A DNA stretch of 59,885 bases from the IMG/VR virus record IMGVR_UViG_3300008952_000052, positions 1 through 59,885 of that record. One strand, written 5' to 3'. This DNA is from a virus. Taxonomy: Duplodnaviria; Caudoviricetes. Position 1 is the first letter of the stretch. Each line of letters opens with the position of its first letter. Both the position numbers and the translations under genes were made by a program. A model generated the notes under the pieces. The model ran no database searches. It was not told the origin of the DNA and saw only the letters and a program-made list of their open reading frames with translations. Positions 973-10,706 of this stretch are shown piece by piece.

Positions 973-1011
973 TTTTCCTGTGGGAGAAAACCTGATTTGT
1001 ATGATTATTAG
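973..1011 (+). promoter_or_regulatory. putative phage early promoter, copy 1
   Basis: ttttcCTGTGggagaaaacctgatTTGTATgattattag; same boxes and 14-nt spacer as four other intergenic copies. Confidence 0.75.
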
Positions 1012-1146
1012 AAATGGAAATCACCTTGAGAAAGCTATGAAAAATTTCTCCACAATACTTGTGTCGGTGATTTAGAGGAAGCATTTGTTTTATTTTCTGC
1101 CTACAAGATAGGGGAAATCTTAAAACGGGGCTTCCTCTTCCATTTC
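1011..1146 (+). ncRNA. highly structured multi-branch RNA (sRNA or structured 5' leader), family unknown
   Basis: Nested helices 1011-1018/1139-1146, 1019-1025/1066-1072, 1028-1033/1045-1050, 1051-1055/1059-1063, 1074-1082/1130-1138, 1087-1092/1121-1126 and 1100-1103/1109-1112. It begins at the end of promoter copy 1. Confidence 0.7.
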
Positions 1147-1178
1147 GTTACCTCACCCCCCCCAAATAGGAGACATTT

Positions 1179-1469
1179 ATGTCTTTCCCTTATCGTCTTA
1201 CCCTCAAAGAGCAGCACAAAGCCCTTGGGTTGCTCTATATGGTCTGCATCAAAGCAGATGATTGCCTTGATGCAGAAGAATTTGAATACTGTATTGATGC
1301 AATTCTCTTCCCTCTCACAGAAGAAGAGAAATCCAGCCTCCAGAAAGGCTGTCAGGCTGGCGAAACCTATCCAGAGATAGAACAGTGGTCTGTCAGTAAG
1401 CTGGATGAATTCTTTTCATCCCTTCCTTCTGATGATGATTGTCTTGATCATATGGGGTTTTCACAATGA
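1179..1469 (+). CDS. acidic hypothetical protein (96 aa)
   Basis: AGGAG SD; ATGA overlap with next gene. Confidence 0.8.
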   Translation: MSFPYRLTLKEQHKALGLLYMVCIKADDCLDAEEFEYCIDAILFPLTEEEKSSLQKGCQAGETYPEIEQWSVSKLDEFFSSLPSDDDCLDHMGFSQ

Positions 1470-1765
1470 CTTGGTTTAAACAACGAGTACCACCCTTCGA
1501 CAAAGCCAACCTTTCACTTAGAGACATTAAGAAAGCTCTAAGTGAAAGCGGTAGTGTCTGGATCTATGACTGGAATGGTGTGGAAATCCATTGGGATACT
1601 CCACATAAGAGTGGAACCCTTCACGAAACCAGAGTGAAGTCTGACCCTAACCAAATCCACGAATGGGATTTGGCTTGTTCTGACATGCCGTTCTTGGTAA
1701 TCAAGGAATGCCCTCCAGACTATAAAGCAATCAGACAGAGATTGAATTCTATGGGCTGGTATTAA
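1466..1765 (+). CDS. hypothetical protein (99 aa)
   Basis: Translationally coupled (ATGA); ends just before promoter copy 2. Confidence 0.8.
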   Translation: MTWFKQRVPPFDKANLSLRDIKKALSESGSVWIYDWNGVEIHWDTPHKSGTLHETRVKSDPNQIHEWDLACSDMPFLVIKECPPDYKAIRQRLNSMGWY

Positions 1766-1783
1766 ATTTTATTTTTCTCACTA

Positions 1784-1822
1784 TTTTTCTGTGAGGAAAA
1801 ACCTGACCTGTATAAGTATTAG
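1784..1822 (+). promoter_or_regulatory. putative phage early promoter, copy 2
   Basis: tttttCTGTGaggaaaaacctgacCTGTATaagtattag. Confidence 0.8.
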
Positions 1823-1824
1823 AG

Positions 1825-1851
1825 GGAGGGGGAACACAGTGTTCCCCCTCC
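1825..1851 (+). promoter_or_regulatory. 5'-terminal hairpin (perfect 13-bp inverted repeat)
   Basis: GGAGGGGGAACAC-A-GTGTTCCCCCTCC immediately after promoter copy 2. Confidence 0.7.
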
Positions 1852-1859
1852 GATTAACC

Positions 1860-1885
1860 TTCCGATCCTTTTAGGATCTATGGAG
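1860..1885 (+). promoter_or_regulatory. conserved SD-enclosing leader hairpin, copy 1
   Basis: ttcc-GATCCT-ttt-AGGATC-tat-ggag, 7 nt before ATG 1893. Confidence 0.7.
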
Positions 1886-1892
1886 TTTTATT

Positions 1893-2129
1893 ATGCGTAG
1901 AACCGCAGAATTTCGCAGAGCTAAAGCTGCTAAAGCTAAAGCTGCTGCTGCCAGAACAGCAAAACTTTGGGGCTGGAATCCCAATCCCCGTACTATTGGT
2001 ATTCTCACCTCTACGGGCTGTCGCCCCAAAAGTGGGGATACTAACCGTGAGATTTTTGGTGCTTCTCGTCAGGAGCGGAGAGCAGACATTGATGCTGCTC
2101 AACAAATCTCAGAAGCATCCCAACCTTAA
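1893..2129 (+). CDS. small basic Ala/Lys/Arg-rich protein (78 aa)
   Basis: GGAG SD; first gene after promoter copy 2; N-terminal RRAKAAKAKAAAAR low-complexity helix. Confidence 0.75.
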   Translation: MRRTAEFRRAKAAKAKAAAARTAKLWGWNPNPRTIGILTSTGCRPKSGDTNREIFGASRQERRADIDAAQQISEASQP

Positions 2130-2142
2130 AACAAACCCTTTT

Positions 2143-2168
2143 TTCCGATCCTTTCAGGATCTATGGAG
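2143..2168 (+). promoter_or_regulatory. conserved SD-enclosing leader hairpin, copy 2
   Basis: ttcc-GATCCT-ttc-AGGATC-tat-ggag, 25/26 identical to copy 1, before ATG 2174. Confidence 0.7.
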
Positions 2169-2173
2169 CAAAC

Positions 2174-2377
2174 ATGACTTATCGAATTTGGATACCTTCC
2201 CTTAAAAGAACCTTTTGGGCAAAGAAGCCCAAGGGTAGAAAGACTTGGTGGAAGGTTCAGTACCCTTCTGCCTGTGGGAAGTTCCTCTATCAGAGCGAAC
2301 ACGGTGGAACAGTCACCGATATGAAACGGGATGTCTTGAAAGAGCATCCTGATGCTGTCATTACCAAATGTAGGTAA
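2174..2377 (+). CDS. small basic hypothetical protein (67 aa)
   Basis: GGAG SD within the leader hairpin; fills the space to promoter copy 3. Confidence 0.75.
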   Translation: MTYRIWIPSLKRTFWAKKPKGRKTWWKVQYPSACGKFLYQSEHGGTVTDMKRDVLKEHPDAVITKCR

Positions 2378-2395
2378 TGAATTCTTTTTCATCTA

Positions 2396-2436
2396 TTTTT
2401 CTGTGGGATAATTCCCAACCTGTATAGGAAGCATAG
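2396..2436 (+). promoter_or_regulatory. putative phage early promoter, copy 3
   Basis: tttttCTGTGggataattcccaacCTGTATaggaagcatag, followed by hairpin gaggggag/ctcccttc. Confidence 0.7.
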
Positions 2437-2471
2437 AGGGGAGATTGGCTCCCTTCCTATGTTCCTTTTTA

Positions 2472-2496
2472 TTCCGACCTTTTAAGGTCTTTGGAG
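2472..2496 (+). promoter_or_regulatory. conserved SD-enclosing leader hairpin, copy 3
   Basis: ttcc-GACCT-ttta-AGGTC-ttt-ggag before ATG 2505; stem sequence differs from copies 1-2 but pairing is kept. Confidence 0.65.
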
Positions 2497-2504
2497 ATTA
2501 CATT

Positions 2505-3794
2505 ATGAGTACATCAAAAACTCACCTCACTTTCGCTCTTGAGAAAAAAGGGCAGAAGCCCTCTGATTATTTTCCTACTCGTTCCAGCCTTATGGCAACG
2601 AATTGCTGCATCTGCGGCAAGAAGTTGGAAAAAGCAGATAGTGTTCAACATATGATCGGCCCTGTGTGCCGTGAAAAGTACATACTGAACCCCATCGGGG
2701 GATTGGCAGTACCTTCTAAAACGGCTGCTTTGGATGCCTTTTGGGGTTTCATCGCTACTGCTGCTCTGGACAGCGACCTTGAAGATTACCTTTTCAGCAA
2801 CGAAGATAATTTCGCTATGCTTGCGGATATCTTGATTGCTTACGGAAGCATTGTCACTCACCAGAAAGGTGGGCATGAAAAGATCCTTATCCTTGCTCAA
2901 GCCCTTCGGGAAATCGGATATGGTCTTGTAGCTGATAGATTGGAAGAAGACAGATGCAGCATCAAGCTTTACCCAAGTGAGCGAATTGGGAAAGAAGATA
3001 CTCACTTCAAACTCTTCATCCCTCTGAAGTCTGAGTTGAGCGTTTCCCAACTTTACAAATTCGTTGGGAAATCTAAGGTTGAGTATTTTCAGCCTCAGAA
3101 AACTCGTCGTGGTTGTTATTGGGAAATTCCCAAAGCTTCATCTGTTGAGATGTTGTTCTCTCTTTCCCTTCAATATGGAAGAGAACGCTTCTTTCAGAAG
3201 GGTATGAAGACCATTCAAACGGTTCCCACATTTTCCTCTTTCGGAGATATGGAGCCTTGTCAGGAGTGGCTTGATGCTCACATACCTGCTGTAACCATTC
3301 AGCAAGTTGGTGAGAATGTAACAGTACACTCCCCTGCCCCTTGGTCTTCTACTCAGGCTGGTAACTTCTCTGCCTTTGTGAAGTCTTTCAAGTGGAAGTG
3401 GGCAAGAGGATATGGTCTGATTGTGGATCACTCCCACCTGAAGGCTATTGAGGCTAAAGCAAAGGCTCTCTTCGCATCTTATGATGTGAAGGTGGACATT
3501 GTATCCAAGCCTGTTGCCAAGCCTGTACAGACTGCTGCTGCTCCCACCGTGGCTACTGTCAAGGCTGGTACTGCTACCTTGGTCACCTTCACTAAGGAAG
3601 GCAAGAGAATCCGTATGAAGTCACCTGCCCCTTGGACTTGTCCTTCTGCTGGAGCCTTGGTAGCAACTGTCAAGGCAACCAGAGGTCGCAAGTATGATGG
3701 TAAGACTTATACTTGGACTTTCCCTGCTTCCAAATGGGATGCTATCAAGGAGAAGGCTGAAGAGGTCTACACTAACCAATGGGTTCTGGTATAG
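2505..3794 (+). CDS. DUF6011-like Zn-finger protein with two C-terminal HARP-like repeats (putative nucleic-acid-binding protein)
   Basis: Start re-assigned to ATG 2505 (GGAG SD). N-terminal CCICGKKL...S...IGPVC; duplicated SPAPW...VK module; last repeat VKATRGRKYDGKTYTWTFP. Confidence 0.75.
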   Translation: MSTSKTHLTFALEKKGQKPSDYFPTRSSLMATNCCICGKKLEKADSVQHMIGPVCREKYILNPIGGLAVPSKTAALDAFWGFIATAALDSDLEDYLFSNEDNFAMLADILIAYGSIVTHQKGGHEKILILAQALREIGYGLVADRLEEDRCSIKLYPSERIGKEDTHFKLFIPLKSELSVSQLYKFVGKSKVEYFQPQKTRRGCYWEIPKASSVEMLFSLSLQYGRERFFQKGMKTIQTVPTFSSFGDMEPCQEWLDAHIPAVTIQQVGENVTVHSPAPWSSTQAGNFSAFVKSFKWKWARGYGLIVDHSHLKAIEAKAKALFASYDVKVDIVSKPVAKPVQTAAAPTVATVKAGTATLVTFTKEGKRIRMKSPAPWTCPSAGALVATVKATRGRKYDGKTYTWTFPASKWDAIKEKAEEVYTNQWVLV

Positions 3795-3815
3795 GACTTG
3801 TTGCTGTATTTATTC

Positions 3816-3844
3816 GGGAGAGAGGTCTAACCCACCTCTCTCCC
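3816..3844 (+). terminator. intergenic 11-bp hairpin (terminator, or 5' hairpin of a degenerate promoter)
   Basis: GGGAGAGAGGT/ACCTCTCTCCC followed by a T-rich tract and preceded by CTGTAT at 3804. Confidence 0.55.
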
Positions 3845-3868
3845 ATTCTTATTTTCTGGAGTTGAAAA

Positions 3869-4138
3869 ATGTCGAAAAACAAAGCCCGTTACCATAAGCG
3901 GAAAACGCTCTTTAACATTGCTGATGCACTGGTAAAAGACCAAGCCTGTAGGGATCTTCTAATGGCTCTACTGGCTCCCATCAAGGGATCTAACAACGGT
4001 GTTCTCACACCAGAGCAAGTGCTGCAATGCAATGCGGTTCGTACCGCACTCATTCACACCTTGAAAGAGGGATCTTCTGTAAATGGTTTTATGCCTGACA
4101 AAGCTCAGAATGAATTCTCTAAAACTTGGAGGGGATAA
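3869..4138 (+). CDS. hypothetical protein (89 aa)
   Basis: GGAG SD; TAATG overlap with next gene. Confidence 0.8.
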   Translation: MSKNKARYHKRKTLFNIADALVKDQACRDLLMALLAPIKGSNNGVLTPEQVLQCNAVRTALIHTLKEGSSVNGFMPDKAQNEFSKTWRG

Positions 4139-4326
4139 TGGTCAAAGAAATCTGGACTAAAAAAGAAGATGCTGAAGCTAAGAAATCCAAAGATGATTTT
4201 GAAAGAAGGCAAGCCGAATTGAAAGCAAAGTTAGGTCGTGATCTGACGAGAGATGAAACCCTTTCCTGTCTTGTAGAGGAATTGGATGCTTCTGAATTCA
4301 ACAAAGATTGGAGGAAATTCAAATGA
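4138..4326 (+). CDS. small charged helical protein (62 aa); source/target of the 35-nt inverted repeat
   Basis: Start re-assigned to ATG 4138 (GGAGG SD, TAATG overlap); ATGA overlap with next gene. Confidence 0.75.
   Translation: MVKEIWTKKEDAEAKKSKDDFERRQAELKAKLGRDLTRDETLSCLVEELDASEFNKDWRKFK
4212..4246 (+). repeat. 35-nt inverted repeat, copy A (inside CDS 4138-4326)
   Basis: agccgaattgaaagcaaagttaggtcgtgatctga equals the reverse complement of 7512-7546 at 34/35 positions. Confidence 0.95.
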
Positions 4327-5009
4327 GAAATGAAATCCAAAAGTATCTCTTCAGACCTGATCTCATAGATGAAGCAATGAAGAGAATACGAGAGCTAACC
4401 TTCTTCTTCAAAAAGCATACGGAGATCAAGGTAGCTATGGCTGACGGATCAGCCAAGGTCACCATCCAAGAGATAGAACAGGAGCCTGACTTCTGGATGC
4501 CTTTTGTGAAAACAAAAGATTTCTCACAATCTGAAGAAGGTTGGGGAGATGGTTTTCAGTATGCTTGGGCAAATAACAAATACCAAGTCTTCACCAAGAT
4601 CCTGTTTTATGAACATGGAGATATGATCTGGCTTAGTATCAAAACCCACGGCAGAGATAGCAACCTGCCTTGGAGAGATTTGCAGAGGATTAAGAATGAC
4701 CTGTGCGGTACTGACTGTACAGGAGTAGAGATTTACCCCTCTTCTGACTGTCTGGTGGACACCTCCAACCAATTCCACCTATGGGTAATGCGACCCGGTA
4801 TGCGTGTTCCCTTCGGCTATCAGACAAGGGATGTCTGCCTCACCCAAGAAGAATTCGTTAAAACCCTTGGAGGCAAGCCTGTAGGCTTGGGGAAACAAGA
4901 TCCCTTCAAGCCTCACCACAAAGATGATGGTCTACCAGCCGTGGGGCTGGCTTGGCTCCAATACGAGAAAGATCATCCTGACCGCTACGATTCAGAGAGT
5001 GAAGAATGA
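4323..5009 (+). CDS. conserved phage hypothetical protein (WxDLQRIKN...GVEIYP...VDxxNxxHLW signature)
   Basis: Start re-assigned to ATG 4323 (GGAGG SD, ATGA overlap). The signature is recalled from a widespread uncharacterised phage family. Confidence 0.85.
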   Translation: MRNEIQKYLFRPDLIDEAMKRIRELTFFFKKHTEIKVAMADGSAKVTIQEIEQEPDFWMPFVKTKDFSQSEEGWGDGFQYAWANNKYQVFTKILFYEHGDMIWLSIKTHGRDSNLPWRDLQRIKNDLCGTDCTGVEIYPSSDCLVDTSNQFHLWVMRPGMRVPFGYQTRDVCLTQEEFVKTLGGKPVGLGKQDPFKPHHKDDGLPAVGLAWLQYEKDHPDRYDSESEE

Positions 5010-5368
5010 GACTTACACCAAAAGAGAAAGAGGTGCTTAAACACCTCCACAACCAGCCTGTAATGCCTTCTCGGAGAGAACGTAGGCAACAGACAACCCA
5101 TTGGGTAGGAGCCATTAGAAGGGCTTTATACTCCCTTGAGCGCAAAGGTCTTGCCAAGCCTTTCAGTGACTATGAAGAGTTGAAATTACGACAAAAGGAT
5201 TGGTCTTACGGAAAAGATCGACCCTCCCTTGGTATTCTTCGTGAAAGGAAAATCTGGCATAACGGTACTTGGGTGAGCCAAGCAGAGGCTGAGAAGAACC
5301 CTGCCCAATTTGAATGGACACTTACCCCCGAAGGCTTGGAAGCCTACAATGAAAATTCTGGAGAATAA
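5006..5368 (+). CDS. putative winged-helix-like DNA-binding protein (120 aa)
   Basis: LTPKEKEVLKHL...IRRALYSLERKGL...WTLTPEGLEA matches a wHTH pattern with an inserted wing. Confidence 0.65.
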   Translation: MRLTPKEKEVLKHLHNQPVMPSRRERRQQTTHWVGAIRRALYSLERKGLAKPFSDYEELKLRQKDWSYGKDRPSLGILRERKIWHNGTWVSQAEAEKNPAQFEWTLTPEGLEAYNENSGE

Positions 5369-5369
5369 A

Positions 5370-5765
5370 ATGAAAATAGGTAAACACACATTCGGAAATG
5401 AAACTTTCTACTATGTGAAAAGAGAAGAAGAATGGGGTTGTGAATACTGGCAGTCAGGATTTTGGGATGATTTCTCAAAAATAGATCCCTCCAGTCTGAA
5501 AGACCCAACCTTTCTTCATCTTGTAAAAGACTTCTTTGGATTAACAGAAACTCCCTTAGCTGCCTCTGCTGACTGCACCGTAGAATTCTATGTTCGATCT
5601 GCATGCAAAGACCTGATGGAGTGTGGCTTCTTCAAAACCCCCCAAAGCTTCATTGCTGTAGACCACAGAACCTCTGCTGTTGGTGTCTGCTATCGGTTCT
5701 CAAGAGTGATCTACGGTGCAAAAGTAAGACACGACTATTCGTGGAAACCATCAACCAATAGGTGA
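5370..5765 (+). CDS. hypothetical protein (131 aa)
   Basis: Start re-assigned to ATG 5370 (GGAG SD, 1 nt after the upstream stop). Confidence 0.75.
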   Translation: MKIGKHTFGNETFYYVKREEEWGCEYWQSGFWDDFSKIDPSSLKDPTFLHLVKDFFGLTETPLAASADCTVEFYVRSACKDLMECGFFKTPQSFIAVDHRTSAVGVCYRFSRVIYGAKVRHDYSWKPSTNR

Positions 5766-6064
5766 AAACAATGTTTAATACTATCTGTTTGAATTCCATC
5801 TTTGAAGGTGGAGATAGAACCTACGAATCTTATGAAAGAGATCCTTGGACTATCGCTCAACTTCAAAAGTTAGCCCTTCTTCTGGATGGTTACCACAATT
5901 TTGATAAGCACCATCTTGAAAAAGAAATAGTCAGCATCCTTGGCTATCCCTATGAGGGAGGAGTGACGATCACGGCTCTTAACAAATACACAGGCAAACA
6001 AGTCACCTTCATAGGAGACTACCACTCAAACAAAACCCACATACAAGCAGGGGCTGCACAATGA
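5762..6064 (+). CDS. hypothetical protein (~100 aa)
   Basis: GTGA overlap; alternative ATG at 5771 with AGGTG SD. Confidence 0.75.
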   Translation: MKTMFNTICLNSIFEGGDRTYESYERDPWTIAQLQKLALLLDGYHNFDKHHLEKEIVSILGYPYEGGVTITALNKYTGKQVTFIGDYHSNKTHIQAGAAQ

Positions 6065-6309
6065 CCCTTCAAGAAAGAAATGAATATCTCTCCAGCGTTG
6101 GAGAGGTGCAGAGAGAAACCCCCTTATCTCAATCAGAGACAGATGCTATCGGTTCTCATTGGGATAGCCTGATAGAAATAATGCTGAAGAGAGGGGCAAG
6201 CTTCAGTGAAGAGGAGCAAAGAATGATCAAAAAGATAGATCGAATTCTGGAACCCTCAAAAGAAACCCAAAAGAAATGGGCTGCTGAATGCAAAGCCCTC
6301 AAAGGATAG
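6061..6309 (+). CDS. hypothetical protein (82 aa)
   Basis: ATGA overlap with upstream gene. Confidence 0.75.
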   Translation: MTLQERNEYLSSVGEVQRETPLSQSETDAIGSHWDSLIEIMLKRGASFSEEEQRMIKKIDRILEPSKETQKKWAAECKALKG

Positions 6310-6313
6310 AACA

Positions 6314-6694
6314 ATGCACATTCAAGACTGTACTGTTGGACAGAGAGTTGTCTTTGGTCGCCCCAATGGGCAGAAGACTGAGGGAACCATAGTCAAGGTC
6401 AATCGCAAGACCGTCAAGATTCGACAGGTAGGAGCCAGAGGAACCACCAAGGATCACAGTGTGGGTACAATGTGGACTTGCTCCCCTGCCCTTGTGACCC
6501 TCCTGACTGCCTCTGAGCGATCAGAGAGTGAGATCCTCAAGGATCTGGCAAGGGTCATCATCAAGATACAGATACCCAGCACCAGAGACACTGGGCTGAA
6601 CAGCTTGAGGATGAAAGCCTTCAAACTTAGAGCGGAACTAACCAGAGAGGTTCCTGACACTGAAATCTGGAACCTCATACTGAAAGGAATATAA
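6314..6694 (+). CDS. hypothetical protein with N-terminal SH3/KOW-like beta barrel
   Basis: VGQRVVF...EGTIVKVNRKTVKI...WTCSPALV pattern; AAGGA SD. Confidence 0.75.
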   Translation: MHIQDCTVGQRVVFGRPNGQKTEGTIVKVNRKTVKIRQVGARGTTKDHSVGTMWTCSPALVTLLTASERSESEILKDLARVIIKIQIPSTRDTGLNSLRMKAFKLRAELTREVPDTEIWNLILKGI

Positions 6695-6696
6695 CA

Positions 6697-7086
6697 ATGA
6701 CTTTTACAAAGAGAGAGCAGCAAGCTCTATATCACTTGCTCACATTGCAGCAACACATCGGAAGCCTACCCTCTTTTGAGAGTAGGCTTATCTCAGATCA
6801 TATCAGTCATGCTATCTTAGTAGACTTGGAAAGCAAAGAGTGCTTTGAAGATATGTTGAGCAATGATGGTAACCCTACAACCCTCAAGTCCTTGACTGTA
6901 CTTGGGATGGAAAACGCTATCCCCCACCACGCTCTTAACCGCTTTACCATTCCATTCTCTGAGACAGAGTGGGGGAAGCTAATGAGAGGCTTCCCAAATG
7001 AACAGTGTCTCATAGCTTGGATTCGTGAACAAGCAATTGAGAACAGTGAGAAAACAGTCTTTATACGAAATCGGGTGGAACAATGA
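6697..7086 (+). CDS. hypothetical protein (129 aa)
   Basis: AAGGA SD, 2 nt after the upstream stop. Confidence 0.75.
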   Translation: MTFTKREQQALYHLLTLQQHIGSLPSFESRLISDHISHAILVDLESKECFEDMLSNDGNPTTLKSLTVLGMENAIPHHALNRFTIPFSETEWGKLMRGFPNEQCLIAWIREQAIENSEKTVFIRNRVEQ

Positions 7087-7108
7087 GACTTTCTGTAGGA
7101 AAATCAGA

Positions 7109-7435
7109 TTATACTTTCTCAATCATATATTCTTTCACACCATAATTTGTTCCATTAAAAGAAACTGAGAGATTATTTGGTTTATCATAAGTAATTGTTC
7201 CAACAACACCCTTTCGATAAAAAGCCCCTAATTCTCTTGAATACTCATTAGAAAACTTAGTAGGTACTCTGTGCTTGTTGTATTCTTGCAATCCTTTCAA
7301 GGTGAGCATTACCTTATCCCCTTTTCTGAATGACGAACCAGCACTCTTAGTGACAAGTGGTAACAAATGCTCTCTTAATTCAGGCTTTTGGTGTGCAAGT
7401 CTGATAACTTTTGATCTTAATGATTTGTCTGACAT
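7109..7435 (-). CDS. lone reverse-strand protein with N-terminal LRSKVIRLAHQKPELREHLLPLV leader (candidate internal virion protein)
   Basis: Start re-assigned to ATG 7435 (GGAG SD); has its own candidate late-type promoter at 7479-7495. Confidence 0.75.
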   Translation of the reverse strand: MSDKSLRSKVIRLAHQKPELREHLLPLVTKSAGSSFRKGDKVMLTLKGLQEYNKHRVPTKFSNEYSRELGAFYRKGVVGTITYDKPNNLSVSFNGTNYGVKEYMIEKV

Positions 7436-7478
7436 TGTTTTTTCTCCAAAAATAAAAAGTTTTCTCAATAAGTGAACT

Positions 7479-7495
7479 GTATAAAATGATTATTG
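7479..7495 (-). promoter_or_regulatory. candidate late-type promoter (CRRTAR-N6-TATM)
   Basis: caATAAtcatttTATAc on the - strand, resembling motifs at 27275-27291 and 35124-35140. Confidence 0.35.
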
Positions 7496-7503
7496 TTTGG
7501 CTT

Positions 7504-7566
7504 TCAGGGTTTCAGGTCACGACCTAACTTTGCTTTCAATTCGGCTGGAAACGAAACTATCTCCAT
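7504..7566 (-). CDS. possible 20-aa mini-ORF MEIVSFPAELKAKLGRDLKP
   Basis: GAGG upstream of ATG; reads the inverted repeat in the same frame as CDS 4138-4326. It may not be translated. Confidence 0.3.
   Translation of the reverse strand: MEIVSFPAELKAKLGRDLKP
7512..7546 (-). repeat. 35-nt inverted repeat, copy B (intergenic; the + strand is antisense to the mRNA of CDS 4138-4326)
   Basis: tcaggtcacgacctaactttgctttcaattcggct; the single difference (G7516 opposite T4242) would be a G-U pair in RNA. Confidence 0.95.
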
Positions 7567-7591
7567 ACTCGTCCTCGCTCATAGGAGAATC

Positions 7592-7629
7592 TTTTCTGTG
7601 GGGTAAAACCTCACCTGTATAGGTATTAG
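7592..7629 (+). promoter_or_regulatory. putative phage early promoter, copy 4
   Basis: ttttCTGTGgggtaaaacctcacCTGTATaggtattag. Confidence 0.8.
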
Positions 7630-7649
7630 CCCACAACCAAGGAGTAAGC

Positions 7650-7796
7650 ATGGAAAACGTAAAAGTAAGATGGATCAACTTTACTGGTCAAGAACAGGAG
7701 CGCATGTTCACCGAAAAACATGCTGAGAAATTCATTGCAATGCTGAAAAGCACAGGCTTGCCTGTACTATCAAAAACCAAACTCAAGGAGCAATAA
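7650..7796 (+). CDS. small hypothetical protein (48 aa, MENVKVRWINFTGQEQERMF...), absent from the supplied ORF track
   Basis: AAGGAG SD, directly after promoter copy 4; TAATG overlap with next gene. Confidence 0.8.
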   Translation: MENVKVRWINFTGQEQERMFTEKHAEKFIAMLKSTGLPVLSKTKLKEQ

Positions 7797-8128
7797 TGAG
7801 TAAGACAGGAGCATGGGTGCTTGAAATTCAGGAACAAATGACTGAAGAAGAATGGCATCAACAAAATCAACAAAACGACTACAGCCCTCACGATTGGGCT
7901 ACAAGCCAGCCTGAGTGGGATGCCACTCTTGGGAGGGCTATATCCCTCATCAGACAGGCTCTGAGTGAACAGAAGGGGTTAGACACTCCCCTGTGGAAAG
8001 CCTTCTCCTATGCAGAGGAATTGGCTGTCTATGCCCTCTGTGAGCAGGAAAAGCCAACCTTGAAAAAGGCTTATTCCATCTTGGGATATCCAGAGGAAGA
8101 AACGGAAACCTCAGAAATTCCGTTTTAA
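7796..8128 (+). CDS. acidic hypothetical protein ending in EIPF
   Basis: AAGGAG SD; acidic C-terminal tail EEETETSEIPF resembling an SSB-type tail. Confidence 0.8.
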   Translation: MSKTGAWVLEIQEQMTEEEWHQQNQQNDYSPHDWATSQPEWDATLGRAISLIRQALSEQKGLDTPLWKAFSYAEELAVYALCEQEKPTLKKAYSILGYPEEETETSEIPF

Positions 8129-8236
8129 ATTTCTATCAACCTCCCCCTGTCACTGTATAGGGGGGATGTGAGAGGCAATCCGCTAATCACAAAATCAACA
8201 ATCTATCAGACTTATGTCTGTAAATAGGAGGAGCCT

Positions 8237-9004
8237 ATGGCTCAAAAAACTGGCATTGGTTGGACATCTTCTACTTGGTCACCTGTGGTGAACTGTACGA
8301 AGTGTTCACCTGAATGCAAAAACTGCTATATGTTCGATACTGCGAAGCGAATAAACGCTTCTGGTAAGGCATACCGTAAGAAACACGGAAAGCACCCTCC
8401 ACCTCAGATGGATGCGTATAGAAAGCTCAATCAGGGGCCTCAAATGGTTCCTGAGAGTATGAACATTCCTCGTAAGTGGAAGAAGGGTCGTATGATCTTC
8501 GTCTGCTCTATGAGCGATCTCTTTCATGCAGATATTGAAGACTGGTACATCAAGGCAGTCTTTCAAGTGATGAATGAGTGTCCACAGCATACCTTTCAAG
8601 TCTTAACTAAGCGTTCTGATCGTTTAGCTCAGATAGCTTCTCAGTTGACTTGGACAGATAATATCTGGATTGGTGTTTCTGTTGGTGTGAAAAAGTCTGT
8701 GTATCGTATTCACGATCTTCAAACGGTGAAGCAAGCTAAAGTCCGTTTTCTCTCTGTAGAGCCTCTTTTAGAGAATATCCCTAATATGCCTTTGGATGGT
8801 ATTGATTGGGTAATCTGCGGTGGAGAGAGTGGTTCAAAGCATCGTCCTATGGATCTGGCTTGGGCAAGATCTGTTCGTGATCAAGTCCTGACTGCTAAGA
8901 TTCCATTCTTCTTTAAGCAAATTGGAGGTCGTACTTCAAAGGCTAATGGAAAGATTTTGGATGGGAACACTCATTGCGATTTCCCGTATCACGCTATGCC
9001 GTAG
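8237..9004 (+). CDS. DUF5131 (phage Gp37/Gp68) family protein, radical-SAM-like
   Basis: TGIGWT..TWSP..CTKCSPECKNCY, IFVCSMSDLFH, HTFQVLTKR, RFLSVEPLL, IDWVICGGESG, PFFFKQ; AGGAGG SD. Confidence 0.93.
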   Translation: MAQKTGIGWTSSTWSPVVNCTKCSPECKNCYMFDTAKRINASGKAYRKKHGKHPPPQMDAYRKLNQGPQMVPESMNIPRKWKKGRMIFVCSMSDLFHADIEDWYIKAVFQVMNECPQHTFQVLTKRSDRLAQIASQLTWTDNIWIGVSVGVKKSVYRIHDLQTVKQAKVRFLSVEPLLENIPNMPLDGIDWVICGGESGSKHRPMDLAWARSVRDQVLTAKIPFFFKQIGGRTSKANGKILDGNTHCDFPYHAMP

Positions 9005-9015
9005 TCTCTTTCTCT

Positions 9016-9049
9016 GGTTCTCTTCGTAATTCTTTTTGCGGAGAGAACC
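9016..9049 (+). terminator. 14-bp intergenic hairpin, probable terminator or processing stem
   Basis: GGTTCTCTTCGTAA/TTGCGGAGAGAACC (two G-U pairs) downstream of the DUF5131 gene. Confidence 0.5.
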
Positions 9050-9101
9050 TATTCTCTAACTCTTTTTGCAATTTTGTAATGATTTTATACGGAGACACAT
9101 A

Positions 9102-9404
9102 ATGTCTAATACTATCTCACTCGCAAGCACTGAAGGGTTCTTGGCTATGTCTCAATGGGCAATGGTCAATGATATGAACCGTCAGTTAGAACCAACAATT
9201 GAAGATGCCATTGATCCAAATGGTACTCACATCTGTACTACTGTTATCTTCCACAACCATCGTGCAGGGATCAAGGTTGATCCCCACCTTCGCACTGGAT
9301 GGATGGTGAAGATTAAAGAAACTATGGAGCCAGCCCAACTCTGGATAGATGTTTGCCCCAAGCTGTTTTCTCAACACACCACTAAAGAAGAGGTGTCAGC
9401 ATGA
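9102..9404 (+). CDS. hypothetical protein (100 aa)
   Basis: Start re-assigned to ATG 9102 (GGAG SD); ATGA overlap with next gene. Confidence 0.8.
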   Translation: MSNTISLASTEGFLAMSQWAMVNDMNRQLEPTIEDAIDPNGTHICTTVIFHNHRAGIKVDPHLRTGWMVKIKETMEPAQLWIDVCPKLFSQHTTKEEVSA

Positions 9405-9781
9405 TTGAAATGCCAGATCAATTCTATGATGATGTTCTGAGTATCTGTGGGAGCTTTGCCTACAAAGCTCAATTCGGAGACTTCCCAAAGAAAGACCTCA
9501 CTTCAGATGCCATTGATCCTAAGATGGTAGATATCTTCACTGAGTTTGGTCGCCTCACTATGCACTATCAAATAGCCCTGTTCCATGTAATGAAGGGTAG
9601 GCTGAAAGCAGAAGAGGAAACCTTCATCACTCATCAGAAAGCTTGGACAGAACAAGTGCGAAAGATACAGGAAGTGATCAGCACTGATGAAATCAATGAC
9701 TTTATCAGAGCAGAAGGAAATGTGATGAAAGCCTTTGGTCTGCCTGTCATTCCTTTAGCCGTTGGCTACGCAGAAAATTAA
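9401..9781 (+). CDS. hypothetical protein (126 aa)
   Basis: GAGGTG SD; ends just before promoter copy 5. Confidence 0.8.
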   Translation: MIEMPDQFYDDVLSICGSFAYKAQFGDFPKKDLTSDAIDPKMVDIFTEFGRLTMHYQIALFHVMKGRLKAEEETFITHQKAWTEQVRKIQEVISTDEINDFIRAEGNVMKAFGLPVIPLAVGYAEN

Positions 9782-9790
9782 ATTCATCTT

Positions 9791-9829
9791 TTTTTCTGTG
9801 GGAGGTTTCCTGACCTGTATGAGTATTAG
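9791..9829 (+). promoter_or_regulatory. putative phage early promoter, copy 5
   Basis: tttttCTGTGggaggtttcctgacCTGTATgagtattag. Confidence 0.8.
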
Positions 9830-9870
9830 GAAGGAAACCTCCCTTCTTTTATTCCCCCTTTTATTTTCAA

Positions 9871-9893
9871 CCGACTGCCTTGCAGTCTACGGA
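9871..9893 (+). promoter_or_regulatory. conserved SD-enclosing leader hairpin, copy 4
   Basis: cc-GACTGC-ctt-GCAGTC-tac-gga before ATG 9900; compensatory changes relative to copies 1-3. Confidence 0.6.
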
Positions 9894-10672: not shown

Positions 10673-10706
10673 AAACCCCCCGATCCAATGGATCGGGGGT
10701 TTTTTT
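10673..10706. terminator. bidirectional intrinsic terminator between the early and structural units
   Basis: AAA-C-CCCCCGATCCA-A-TGGATCGGGGG-TTTTTTT between convergent genes. Confidence 0.85.

Follow-up and report, generated by a model that had tools for sequence, protein, structure and literature searches.

A 136-nucleotide (nt) segment at positions 1011–1146 of IMGVR_UViG_3300008952_000052, a viral record of the IMG/VR database, folds into two nested three-way junctions directly behind a promoter-like box, and we propose, at a probability of about 0.5, that it is a 5'-terminal structured leader that shields an early messenger RNA (mRNA) from decay. The record was analyzed in full (linear, 59,885 bp), and this whole stretch is called the window below. 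In our proposal at least five repeated cassettes, each made of a promoter box, a 5' stem-loop and a Shine-Dalgarno (SD) sequence, would be spaced along the early orphan-gene part of the genome of a huge marine myovirus-like phage, and the fold would supply the stem-loop of one of them. The fold is a real, autonomous folding unit; the start site, the synthesis of the RNA itself, the protective effect and the evolutionary order of its arms are what we infer from DNA sequence. A cis-acting leader most likely fits the context better than does a free-standing noncoding RNA (ncRNA) gene.

The fold and the cassette around it

An earlier note on this DNA had described a set of nested helices in the interval. 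All of these helices are present, and the minimum free energy (MFE) structure and the centroid calculated by RNAfold both give the same architecture: two nested three-way junctions with 53 pairs, found in a single copy in the window on the + strand. The outer helix P1 joins 1011–1018 to 1139–1146 over 8 bp (3' arm, TCCATTTC) and closes a junction of which T1073 is the only unpaired base, as the note had it. P2 (7 bp, 1019–1025/1066–1072) closes the second three-way junction with P2a (6 bp, 1028–1033/1045–1050, with an 11-nt loop) and P2b (5 bp, 1051–1055/1059–1063, with a 3-nt loop). The remaining arm, P3, is a 65-nt hairpin (1074–1138) that holds 27 pairs in four stacked segments of 9, 9, 5 and 4, together with three small bulges and the apical loop CAAGA.

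The stability of the fold was compared with that of dinucleotide-shuffled sequences, a check that the note had proposed. The MFE and centroid energies were both -47.5 kcal/mol, 200 shuffles gave -26.6 +/- 3.5 kcal/mol, and none of the 200 was as stable (z = -5.95). By raw MFE the element falls outside the 25 lowest 136-nt windows of the contig because it is AT-rich (GC content 0.38). After regression on base composition it came first among the 2391 windows of the + strand, 20.7 kcal/mol (4.4 standard deviations) below the regression value, a ranking slightly biased in favour of the element in that its own window was placed exactly and the others were stepped by 25 nt. The ranks just below were mostly taken by other intergenic regions of the early block. 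In six sequence contexts of 136 to 793 nt, all eight helices kept mean pair probabilities of 0.88–0.98.

The reverse strand comes close in stability (-44.4 kcal/mol, z = -5.94, with none of 200 shuffles as good) because the element is a near-perfect inverted repeat. The + strand, which is the strand of all neighbouring genes, folds better by 3.1 kcal/mol. The 53 pairs consist of 49 Watson-Crick and 4 U.G pairs; all four U.G pairs lie in P3, and P1, P2, P2a and P2b are Watson-Crick throughout (26/26). All four non-Watson-Crick pairs read as U.G on the + strand and as C.A mismatches on the - strand, and no A.C opposition occurs in the + fold. The U.G pairs thus favour an RNA of the + strand, but only modestly, with a probability of about 0.06 under a transitions-only null.

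The first base of the fold, G1011, is the last base of the TATTAG that ends a promoter-like box, in agreement with the note. This copy of the box (966–1010, + strand) consists of a T-rich run, YCTGTGRG, CCTGAYYTGTATRRK and TATTA, so that G1011 is the next base and the predicted +1. The general layout covers 45 bp: a T-run, YCTGTGRG, about 6 nt, CCYNAYYTGTATRRK, and then TATTAG in four of the five copies. The window holds two close copies (0 expected), and a looser pattern raises the number to five, every one of them on the + strand within 977–9823; the pattern search places the motif at 977–1011, 1788–1822, 2400–2436, 7595–7629 and 9795–9829. These copies occupy intergenic gaps of the early block, between open reading frames (ORFs) of 48–449 amino acids (aa) mostly without a family, and none was found on the - strand or in the structural region at 11–60 kb. 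Exact matches to the box patterns numbered zero in the IMG/VR viral contigs, in the GTDB genomes and in LR745208.1, a 485-kb uncultured phage.

In contigs from public sequencing runs the box is present at many further loci of the same phage population. Read-contig depth over 901–1000 was 11–17, compared with about 3–7 nearby, and separate contigs share the box and diverge from it into unrelated sequence at 1004, 1010, 1012 or 1013. Conservation of the box therefore ends at the G of TATTAG, where the fold begins, and it is on this ground that we predict the +1 at G1011. A scan of the + strand for the sigma-70 consensus gave no match at any of the five boxes; the box carries TATRRK and TATTAG without a recognizable -35 element, and a factor or polymerase specific to the phage probably reads it.

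The leaders behind the other boxes were folded from the final box G to the start codon. In cassette 2 (1785–1851, + strand) the box is followed by a 12-bp hairpin of a G-run and a C-run that starts at +4; in cassette 3 (2397–2458, + strand) a diverged box precedes an 8-bp hairpin from the predicted +1; and in cassette 5 (9792–9852, + strand) a 6-bp hairpin at +1 is followed by UUUU. Cassette 4 (7592–7649, + strand), with a box and an unstructured leader of 21 nt, is the sole exception. Thus, with copy 1 included, in four of the five leaders a helix with no fewer than 6 contiguous pairs (6–12) begins at nt 1–4. Such a helix occurs in 8–25% of random windows of the same length, so that four or more of five has a probability of about 0.004, a figure to be read with the facts that the +1 positions are predicted and that the hairpins had been seen before the test was framed. 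A further box copy in two of the public runs, X2 and X3, is followed by a 19-nt stretch that can be read by eye as an 8-bp hairpin.

Downstream of the fold, the SD sequence AGGAG (1168–1172) and the ATG at 1179 both lie beyond 1146, so the note was right to place the SD outside the structure. The sequence directly 3' of P1, GTTACCTCACCCCCCCC, has no terminator, and no terminator-like site was found on the + strand over 965–1178. The linker at 1147–1178 is unstructured: it includes ACCTCA and runs as GTTACCTCA, eight C (1156–1163), AAAT, AGGAG and six bases before the ATG. Adding it to the folded sequence left the element unchanged and contributed only -3.6 kcal/mol of weak pairing near the SD. 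Two orphan genes follow as a bicistron on the + strand (1179–1469, 96 aa, and 1466–1765, 99 aa) with a 4-nt overlap. With no terminator in between, and with the SD and ATG following, transcription is expected to run into these two ORFs. This is the anatomy expected of a 5' leader with an accessible ribosome-binding site, and of neither a terminated small RNA nor a switch that sequesters the SD.

Database searches and a diverged relative in public reads

The note had not recognized the RNA as a known class, and neither did the searches. A scan against Rfam, which it had suggested, left all 4227 families below their gathering scores throughout the window, and ARAGORN reported no tRNA or tmRNA gene there. 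Rfam hits within 900–1300 were sub-threshold noise, the best having 20 bits against a gathering score of 70; the best of those that overlap the element scored 20 bits (threshold 70) and 16.3 bits (threshold 49.8). When the single sequence was made into a covariance model, the model found only the element itself in the window and nothing in LR745208.1, and blastn-short within the window returned nothing beyond 11 exact or 14 near-exact bases. The region 900–1300 had no blastn match among GenBank phages. At the protein level, the flanking products of 95, 96 and 449 aa had no match in the viral contig collection, and the 96-aa protein had none in the metagenome contig collection; in the protein database the 96-aa protein met its own cluster only, with a 98% twin on a 9989-bp contig.

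Pattern searches for the separate arms were similarly empty in the IMG/VR viral contigs, with no match to P1/P2 and none to P3. In the GTDB genome contigs the P1/P2 pattern matched once, in a GC-rich coding region of a bacterial metagenome-assembled genome, which we take as chance (about 0.4 expected). The P3 pattern matched twice in metagenome contigs, both times in unrelated AT-rich DNA. A literature search for structured or noncoding RNA and covariation in huge phages found nothing relevant.

A diverged relative was nevertheless met in public reads, where runs X2, X3, X5 and X6 of the six found were compared with the window. The listed contigs of X2 and X3 leave about 1014–1152 uncovered, a gap in read cover only. 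X5 and X6 belong to another study and carry another organism label, and their contigs are 80–95% similar to the window. One X6 contig of 94 nt matches the box (955–1004/1010, with 11 differences) and continues for 30 displayed letters, the last 22 of which align to 1077–1098 in the 5' arm of P3 with 19/22 identical. P3-like sequence thus stands within about 8 nt of the box, and the module of about 63 nt that holds the 5' arm of P1 and all of P2 appears to be missing from this contig.

The three differences within the aligned letters all fit the pairing of P3. A1079>G turns an A-U pair with U1133 into G.U, T1086>C turns a U.G pair with G1127 into C-G, and T1093>A falls on a bulged base; these changes are one-sided, on the 5' arm only, the letters of the 3' arm not being displayed. 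A fourth difference further 5', A1076>T, would require a change in its partner outside the displayed letters. In X5, a contig of 209 nt covers 1101–1320, reaching into the 96-aa gene; relative to the window it lacks 11 nt, every one of them within 1130–1156, the location of the P1 3' arm. These two contigs, from two runs and neither bridging the locus, suggest a relative built as box, P3, SD and gene, without P1 and P2.

The window itself bears traces of how P1 and P2 may have come about. Their arms, 1011–1025 on the 5' side and 1066–1072 with 1139–1146 on the 3' side, form one perfect 15-nt inverted repeat that is split by T1073 and the entire P3. A direct repeat, TTAGA (1008–1012 and 1072–1076), brackets the 5' module 1011–1072. 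Without this module, the box would read directly into ...TATTAGAGGAAGC, with P3 starting at +1; the module-less junction ...TATTAGAGGAAGC resembles copy 2 (TATTAGAGGGAGG). Together with the U.G pairs and bulges in P3 and the all-Watson-Crick P1 and P2, these data suggest that P3 is the older and P1/P2 the younger part.

A proposed protective leader and its rivals

We propose that transcription starts at G1011 and that the 136 nt would fold while being transcribed, as the first part of a 168-nt 5' leader on the bicistronic mRNA of the 96-aa and 99-aa genes. P1 would pair the first nucleotides and so bury the 5' triphosphate end in a helix, which would likely block 5'-end-dependent decay by an RppH-type pyrophosphohydrolase and RNase E or J, and the SD outside the fold would remain free for ribosomes. 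RppH and RNase E both require single-stranded 5' ends, and it is to this requirement that the stabilization conferred by 5' secondary structure is traced in passages of PMC3997798. Protection from 5'-end-dependent decay is the best-established function of a helix at +1 with a free SD. P3 would be the older core, and P1/P2 a lineage-specific addition that keeps the 5' end paired: the P1 3' arm would have restored the pairing of the 5' end after the P2 module was inserted into the initially transcribed sequence, and the mutual complementarity of two separate indels would thereby be accounted for.

The earlier note had left two possibilities side by side, a cis-regulatory leader and an early ncRNA acting as a protein decoy, an antitoxin mimic or a processed RNA. 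The first gained ground from the lack of a terminator over 965–1178, the SD and ORF that follow and the 5' helices behind sibling boxes. The second lost ground, as there is no second copy, no loop target beyond chance, and a relative in which P1 and P2 seem to be missing.

Several points weigh against a protective leader. Its +1 is predicted, not mapped, with the end of box conservation as the sole basis, and the boxes have no sigma-70 match in the scan described above. One of the five leaders has no hairpin. A simple hairpin would suffice for protection, and a 136-nt double three-way junction far exceeds the need; this excess keeps an ncRNA in play. The - strand folds nearly as well, so that the call of the strand comes down to four U.G pairs (p about 0.06). 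The relative is known from two short contigs of two runs, of which the 94-nt one could stem from a paralogous cassette. Finally, the all-Watson-Crick P1/P2, seemingly absent in the relative, could be a recent functionless insertion.

A first alternative is that the element serves processing by RNase III. Host RNase III would cut its long, nearly perfect duplex, parting the downstream mRNA from upstream read-through and setting the stability or translation of that mRNA, as happens at RNase III sites in the early region of T7 and in the leader of lambda N. The duplex is far above two helical turns (27 pairs in P3, or 35 if it is stacked on P1), there is no terminator between the upstream genes (115–964) and the element, so that read-through transcripts would carry the fold internally, and P3 is the very part that is common to the relative. 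However, the sibling hairpins of 6–12 bp are too short for RNase III, which points to a paired 5' end, not a long duplex, as the feature that the cassettes have in common, and we regard processing as unlikely.

The element may also owe its shape to events at the DNA level, as a recombination or shuffling site of the kind represented by the promoter-early stem-loop (PeSL) cassettes of T4-type phages, with the fold as a by-product and no function as RNA; P1/P2 would then be a recent palindromic insertion or a template-switch product bracketed by the TTAGA repeats. Such an origin would agree with the equal stability z-scores on the two strands, the perfect 15-nt inverted repeat with its 26/26 Watson-Crick pairs, the 5-bp direct repeat flanking the 5' module, the seeming absence of the module from the relative and the position of PeSLs next to indels between close relatives, as described in the relevant part of PMC4122927. 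It leaves out of account that all four mismatched positions are U.G on the transcribed strand. It would also need more than a single random insertion, since two separate indels are complementary and close the junction exactly at the predicted +1, and no second copy exists in the 60 kb, with the pattern of P1/P2 absent from viral contigs and matched once, by chance, in genome contigs. We consider a selfish or DNA-level origin rather improbable.

A free or processed ncRNA, released from the 5' end of the transcript to act in trans as a protein decoy, scaffold or regulatory RNA, is about equally improbable. A compact, autonomous and very stable fold would outlast processing, and a precedent exists in the small RNAs (sRNAs) derived from 5' untranslated regions (5'UTRs) of the giant phage 201phi2-1, as reported in the part of PMC11512511 that deals with them. 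Neither a terminator nor a U-run follows the fold here, hardly any nucleotides are unpaired and potentially conserved for recognition, and half of the structure is seemingly dispensable in the relative. As for a target, the complement of the 11-nt P2a loop matches the window at chance level (2 matches including the loop itself, 1.83 expected). A bolder form of the same idea is that the 136-nt fold is cut off and persists as a new class of almost fully paired huge-phage ncRNA, a trans-acting scaffold or decoy for a host RNA-binding or dsRNA-sensing protein, with P3 as its conserved core and P1/P2 as a lineage-specific extension; we hold this to be more doubtful still.

Even less probable is a cis-regulatory sensor, that is, a riboswitch, thermosensor or protein-bound operator that would control translation of, or elongation into, the 96-aa gene. 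The position in a 5'UTR directly upstream of an ORF would suit it, as would the weak alternative pairing of 1147–1153 with the SD region (-3.6 kcal/mol). But the fold leaves the SD outside and essentially free, the junctions have 0–2 unpaired nt and hence no plausible ligand pocket, a competing terminator or anti-terminator is lacking, as is an Rfam match, and one structure dominates the ensemble (helix probabilities of 0.88–0.98). That an AT-rich intergenic stretch folds well by chance is very improbable: the fold is a single sequence without covariation and of modest raw MFE rank, yet it surpasses all 200 shuffles, ranks first after composition correction and begins precisely at the end of the box.

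Taken together, the fold is a new sequence without a family, and its most probable role is that of a variant of the promoter/stem-loop cassette and a 5' stabilizing leader; on present evidence it opens no new category.

Genomic setting and comparison with known systems

The contig comes from a huge marine myovirus-like phage, of which it is only a fragment. CheckV estimates its completeness at 11%, which makes it a fragment of a very large phage, and public runs that contain the sequence are labelled marine metagenome; six such runs were found, from two studies, and none of them is listed as an RNA data set. Giant ORFs, the longest of 2954 aa, occupy the - strand between 11.5 and 59.9 kb, and two of them match baseplate families, including phrog_6 (baseplate wedge, E 1.6e-25). 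The wedge protein of 1168 aa has 38% aa identity over 98% of its length to a protein of LR745208.1, the closest named record, which is unannotated and of which we found no mention in the literature; Bacillus phage G is a more distant relative. Adjoining the baseplate-like genes on the - strand is a block of 13 ORFs (10724–59860; 186–2954 aa, six of them above 1100 aa) without a Pfam family at E <= 0.001, giant and unannotatable proteins that are presumably structural.

From position 1 to about 10.3 kb the + strand holds a run of small genes, nearly all without a Pfam or PHROG family, and the element sits in a 214-nt gap between a 95-aa gene (677–964) and the 96-aa gene (1179–1469). Neither gene of the bicistron matches a Pfam or PHROG family, and the Atlas offers no more than weak, sub-threshold TerB-like leads. 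Two mini-ORFs within the fold (8 and 12 codons, found by eye) have no convincing SD sites. Inside the 96-aa ORF, a perfect palindromic hairpin of 10 bp (1243–1276) is the source of sub-threshold mir-5595 matches on both strands, and the windows at 1201 and 1226 around it are among the more over-structured of the contig. The only widely shared gene of the early block encodes a 255-aa protein (8237–9004; PHROG 2045, E 3e-77) that is about 46% identical to Gordonia and Mycobacterium phage proteins, one of which is annotated as a DUF5131 family protein in its phage record. Where the early block meets the - strand block, a G+C-rich hairpin of 10 bp (10677–10699) with T-runs on both strands resembles a bidirectional terminator.

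A second repeated motif was seen in the early block. Directly 5' of the SD of four early genes (1860–1885, 2143–2168, about 2474–2499 and about 9870–9893) stands CCGA, a short hairpin, TCT and (A/T)(T/C)GGA(G/A). Two copies fit the 26-nt pattern exactly (0 expected) and two more were added by eye, and the reads place the motif at further loci (joints to 2141 and 2168>2474). The stems vary yet stay complementary (GATCC/GGATC, GACC/GGTC and GACTGC/GCAGTC), which looks like covariation, and the motif may serve as a translational operator that a protein binds. It is missing in front of the gene at 1179, which follows the 136-nt fold. At box 5, a perfect 11-bp inverted repeat (9799–9809/9832–9842, GGGAGGTTTCC/GGAAACCTCCC) spans TGTAT..TATTAG; judged by eye, its geometry is that described for some PeSLs, in which the stem-loop overlaps the -10 region.

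If the proposal of a protective leader is true, a little-known lineage of huge marine phages would build its early transcription units from one repeated module, composed of a promoter box of its own type, a helix in which the 5' end is buried and an SD, and in one instance the helix would have grown into a branched fold of 136 nt. The leaders would then form a natural series of 5' structures, from no helix through 6-bp, 8-bp and 12-bp helices to a double three-way junction, for the study of early mRNA protection. The idea behind the PeSLs, of mobile cassettes that express and shuffle orphan genes, would be extended beyond T4-type phages and to a different type of promoter. The element is a fair candidate for a strong and portable 5' stabilizer. 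As a three-way junction at a single locus it is a candidate worth a reporter assay, and the cassette system in a huge marine phage is of mild specialist interest.

Among known phage RNAs, two are alike in shape only. The put RNA of HK022 has stem-loops near the promoter with one unpaired base between them, and the pRNA of phi29 contains a compact three-way junction. Unlike put, the element has no identified downstream terminators to override, and a myovirus with this gene set does not package its DNA in the manner of phi29. The RNase III hairpins, such as the R0.3-type sites of T7 and the lambda N leader, are similar as long imperfect duplexes in an early leader or intercistronic region, but the element is branched, and its siblings are too short for that enzyme.

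Closer in logic are the 5'-terminal stabilizing stem-loops, of which the T7 gene 10 leader is one. The element resembles them in having a helix at or within a few nt of the predicted +1, a free SD and no ligand or terminator logic; the helix lies within about 4 nt of the first nucleotide if the +1 is the predicted G1011. The known examples, among them the ompA, papA and aprE leaders found in the references of PMC3997798, are single hairpins, whereas the fold here is branched and its 5' end is predicted to pair 128 nt downstream.

In the giant phage 201phi2-1, 8 of 11 sRNAs arise by premature termination in the 5'UTR, according to the relevant section of PMC11512511. Like the element, the sRNAs of 201phi2-1 and phiKZ treated there are structured and lie at the 5' end of a transcription unit, in a phage of very large size. 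They differ in that they are defined by premature termination in long-read RNA data, whereas the element is known from DNA alone, and a G+C-rich hairpin with a U-run at its 3' end, as in a terminated sRNA or an attenuator, was not found on the + strand within 965–1178.

The closest counterparts of the cassettes are the PeSLs, which are, as described in portions of PMC2839356 (Arbiol et al. 2010) and PMC4122927 (Comeau et al. 2014), repeated intergenic units of T4-type myoviruses composed of an AT-rich run, an early promoter, a stem-loop, an SD and a start codon. These portions describe stem-loops that often have G-runs and C-runs, a location between orphan genes in hyperplastic regions, often beside indels between close relatives (the last from PMC4122927), promoter and terminator activities that have been demonstrated, and modular shuffling as a proposed role. 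Measured against that description, the cassettes here are likewise repeated intergenic units of about 100 bp between small orphan genes of a myovirus, with a T- or AT-rich run, a promoter, a stable stem-loop (with G- and C-runs in copies 2 and 5) and then an SD and start codon, and indels between close relatives adjoin them. All five + strand boxes are repeated motifs between mostly orphan genes in a variable region, and four of the five cassettes have a stable stem-loop with an SD and start codon at the 3' end. None of the five boxes has the sigma-70-like promoter (TTGACA-N17-TATAAT or a near variant) of the described PeSLs. Here the stem-loop follows the box and belongs to the 5' end of the transcript, whereas that of a PeSL, in the same portions, lies upstream of, within or across the promoter; a terminator-making U-run is absent, with copy 5 as a possible exception; and the stem-loop of copy 1 is a 136-nt double three-way junction in a phage not shown to be of the T4 type. 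The cassettes are thus PeSL-like units, not members of that class, since they lack the sigma-70 promoter and carry their stem-loop in the transcribed 5' end without a U-run.

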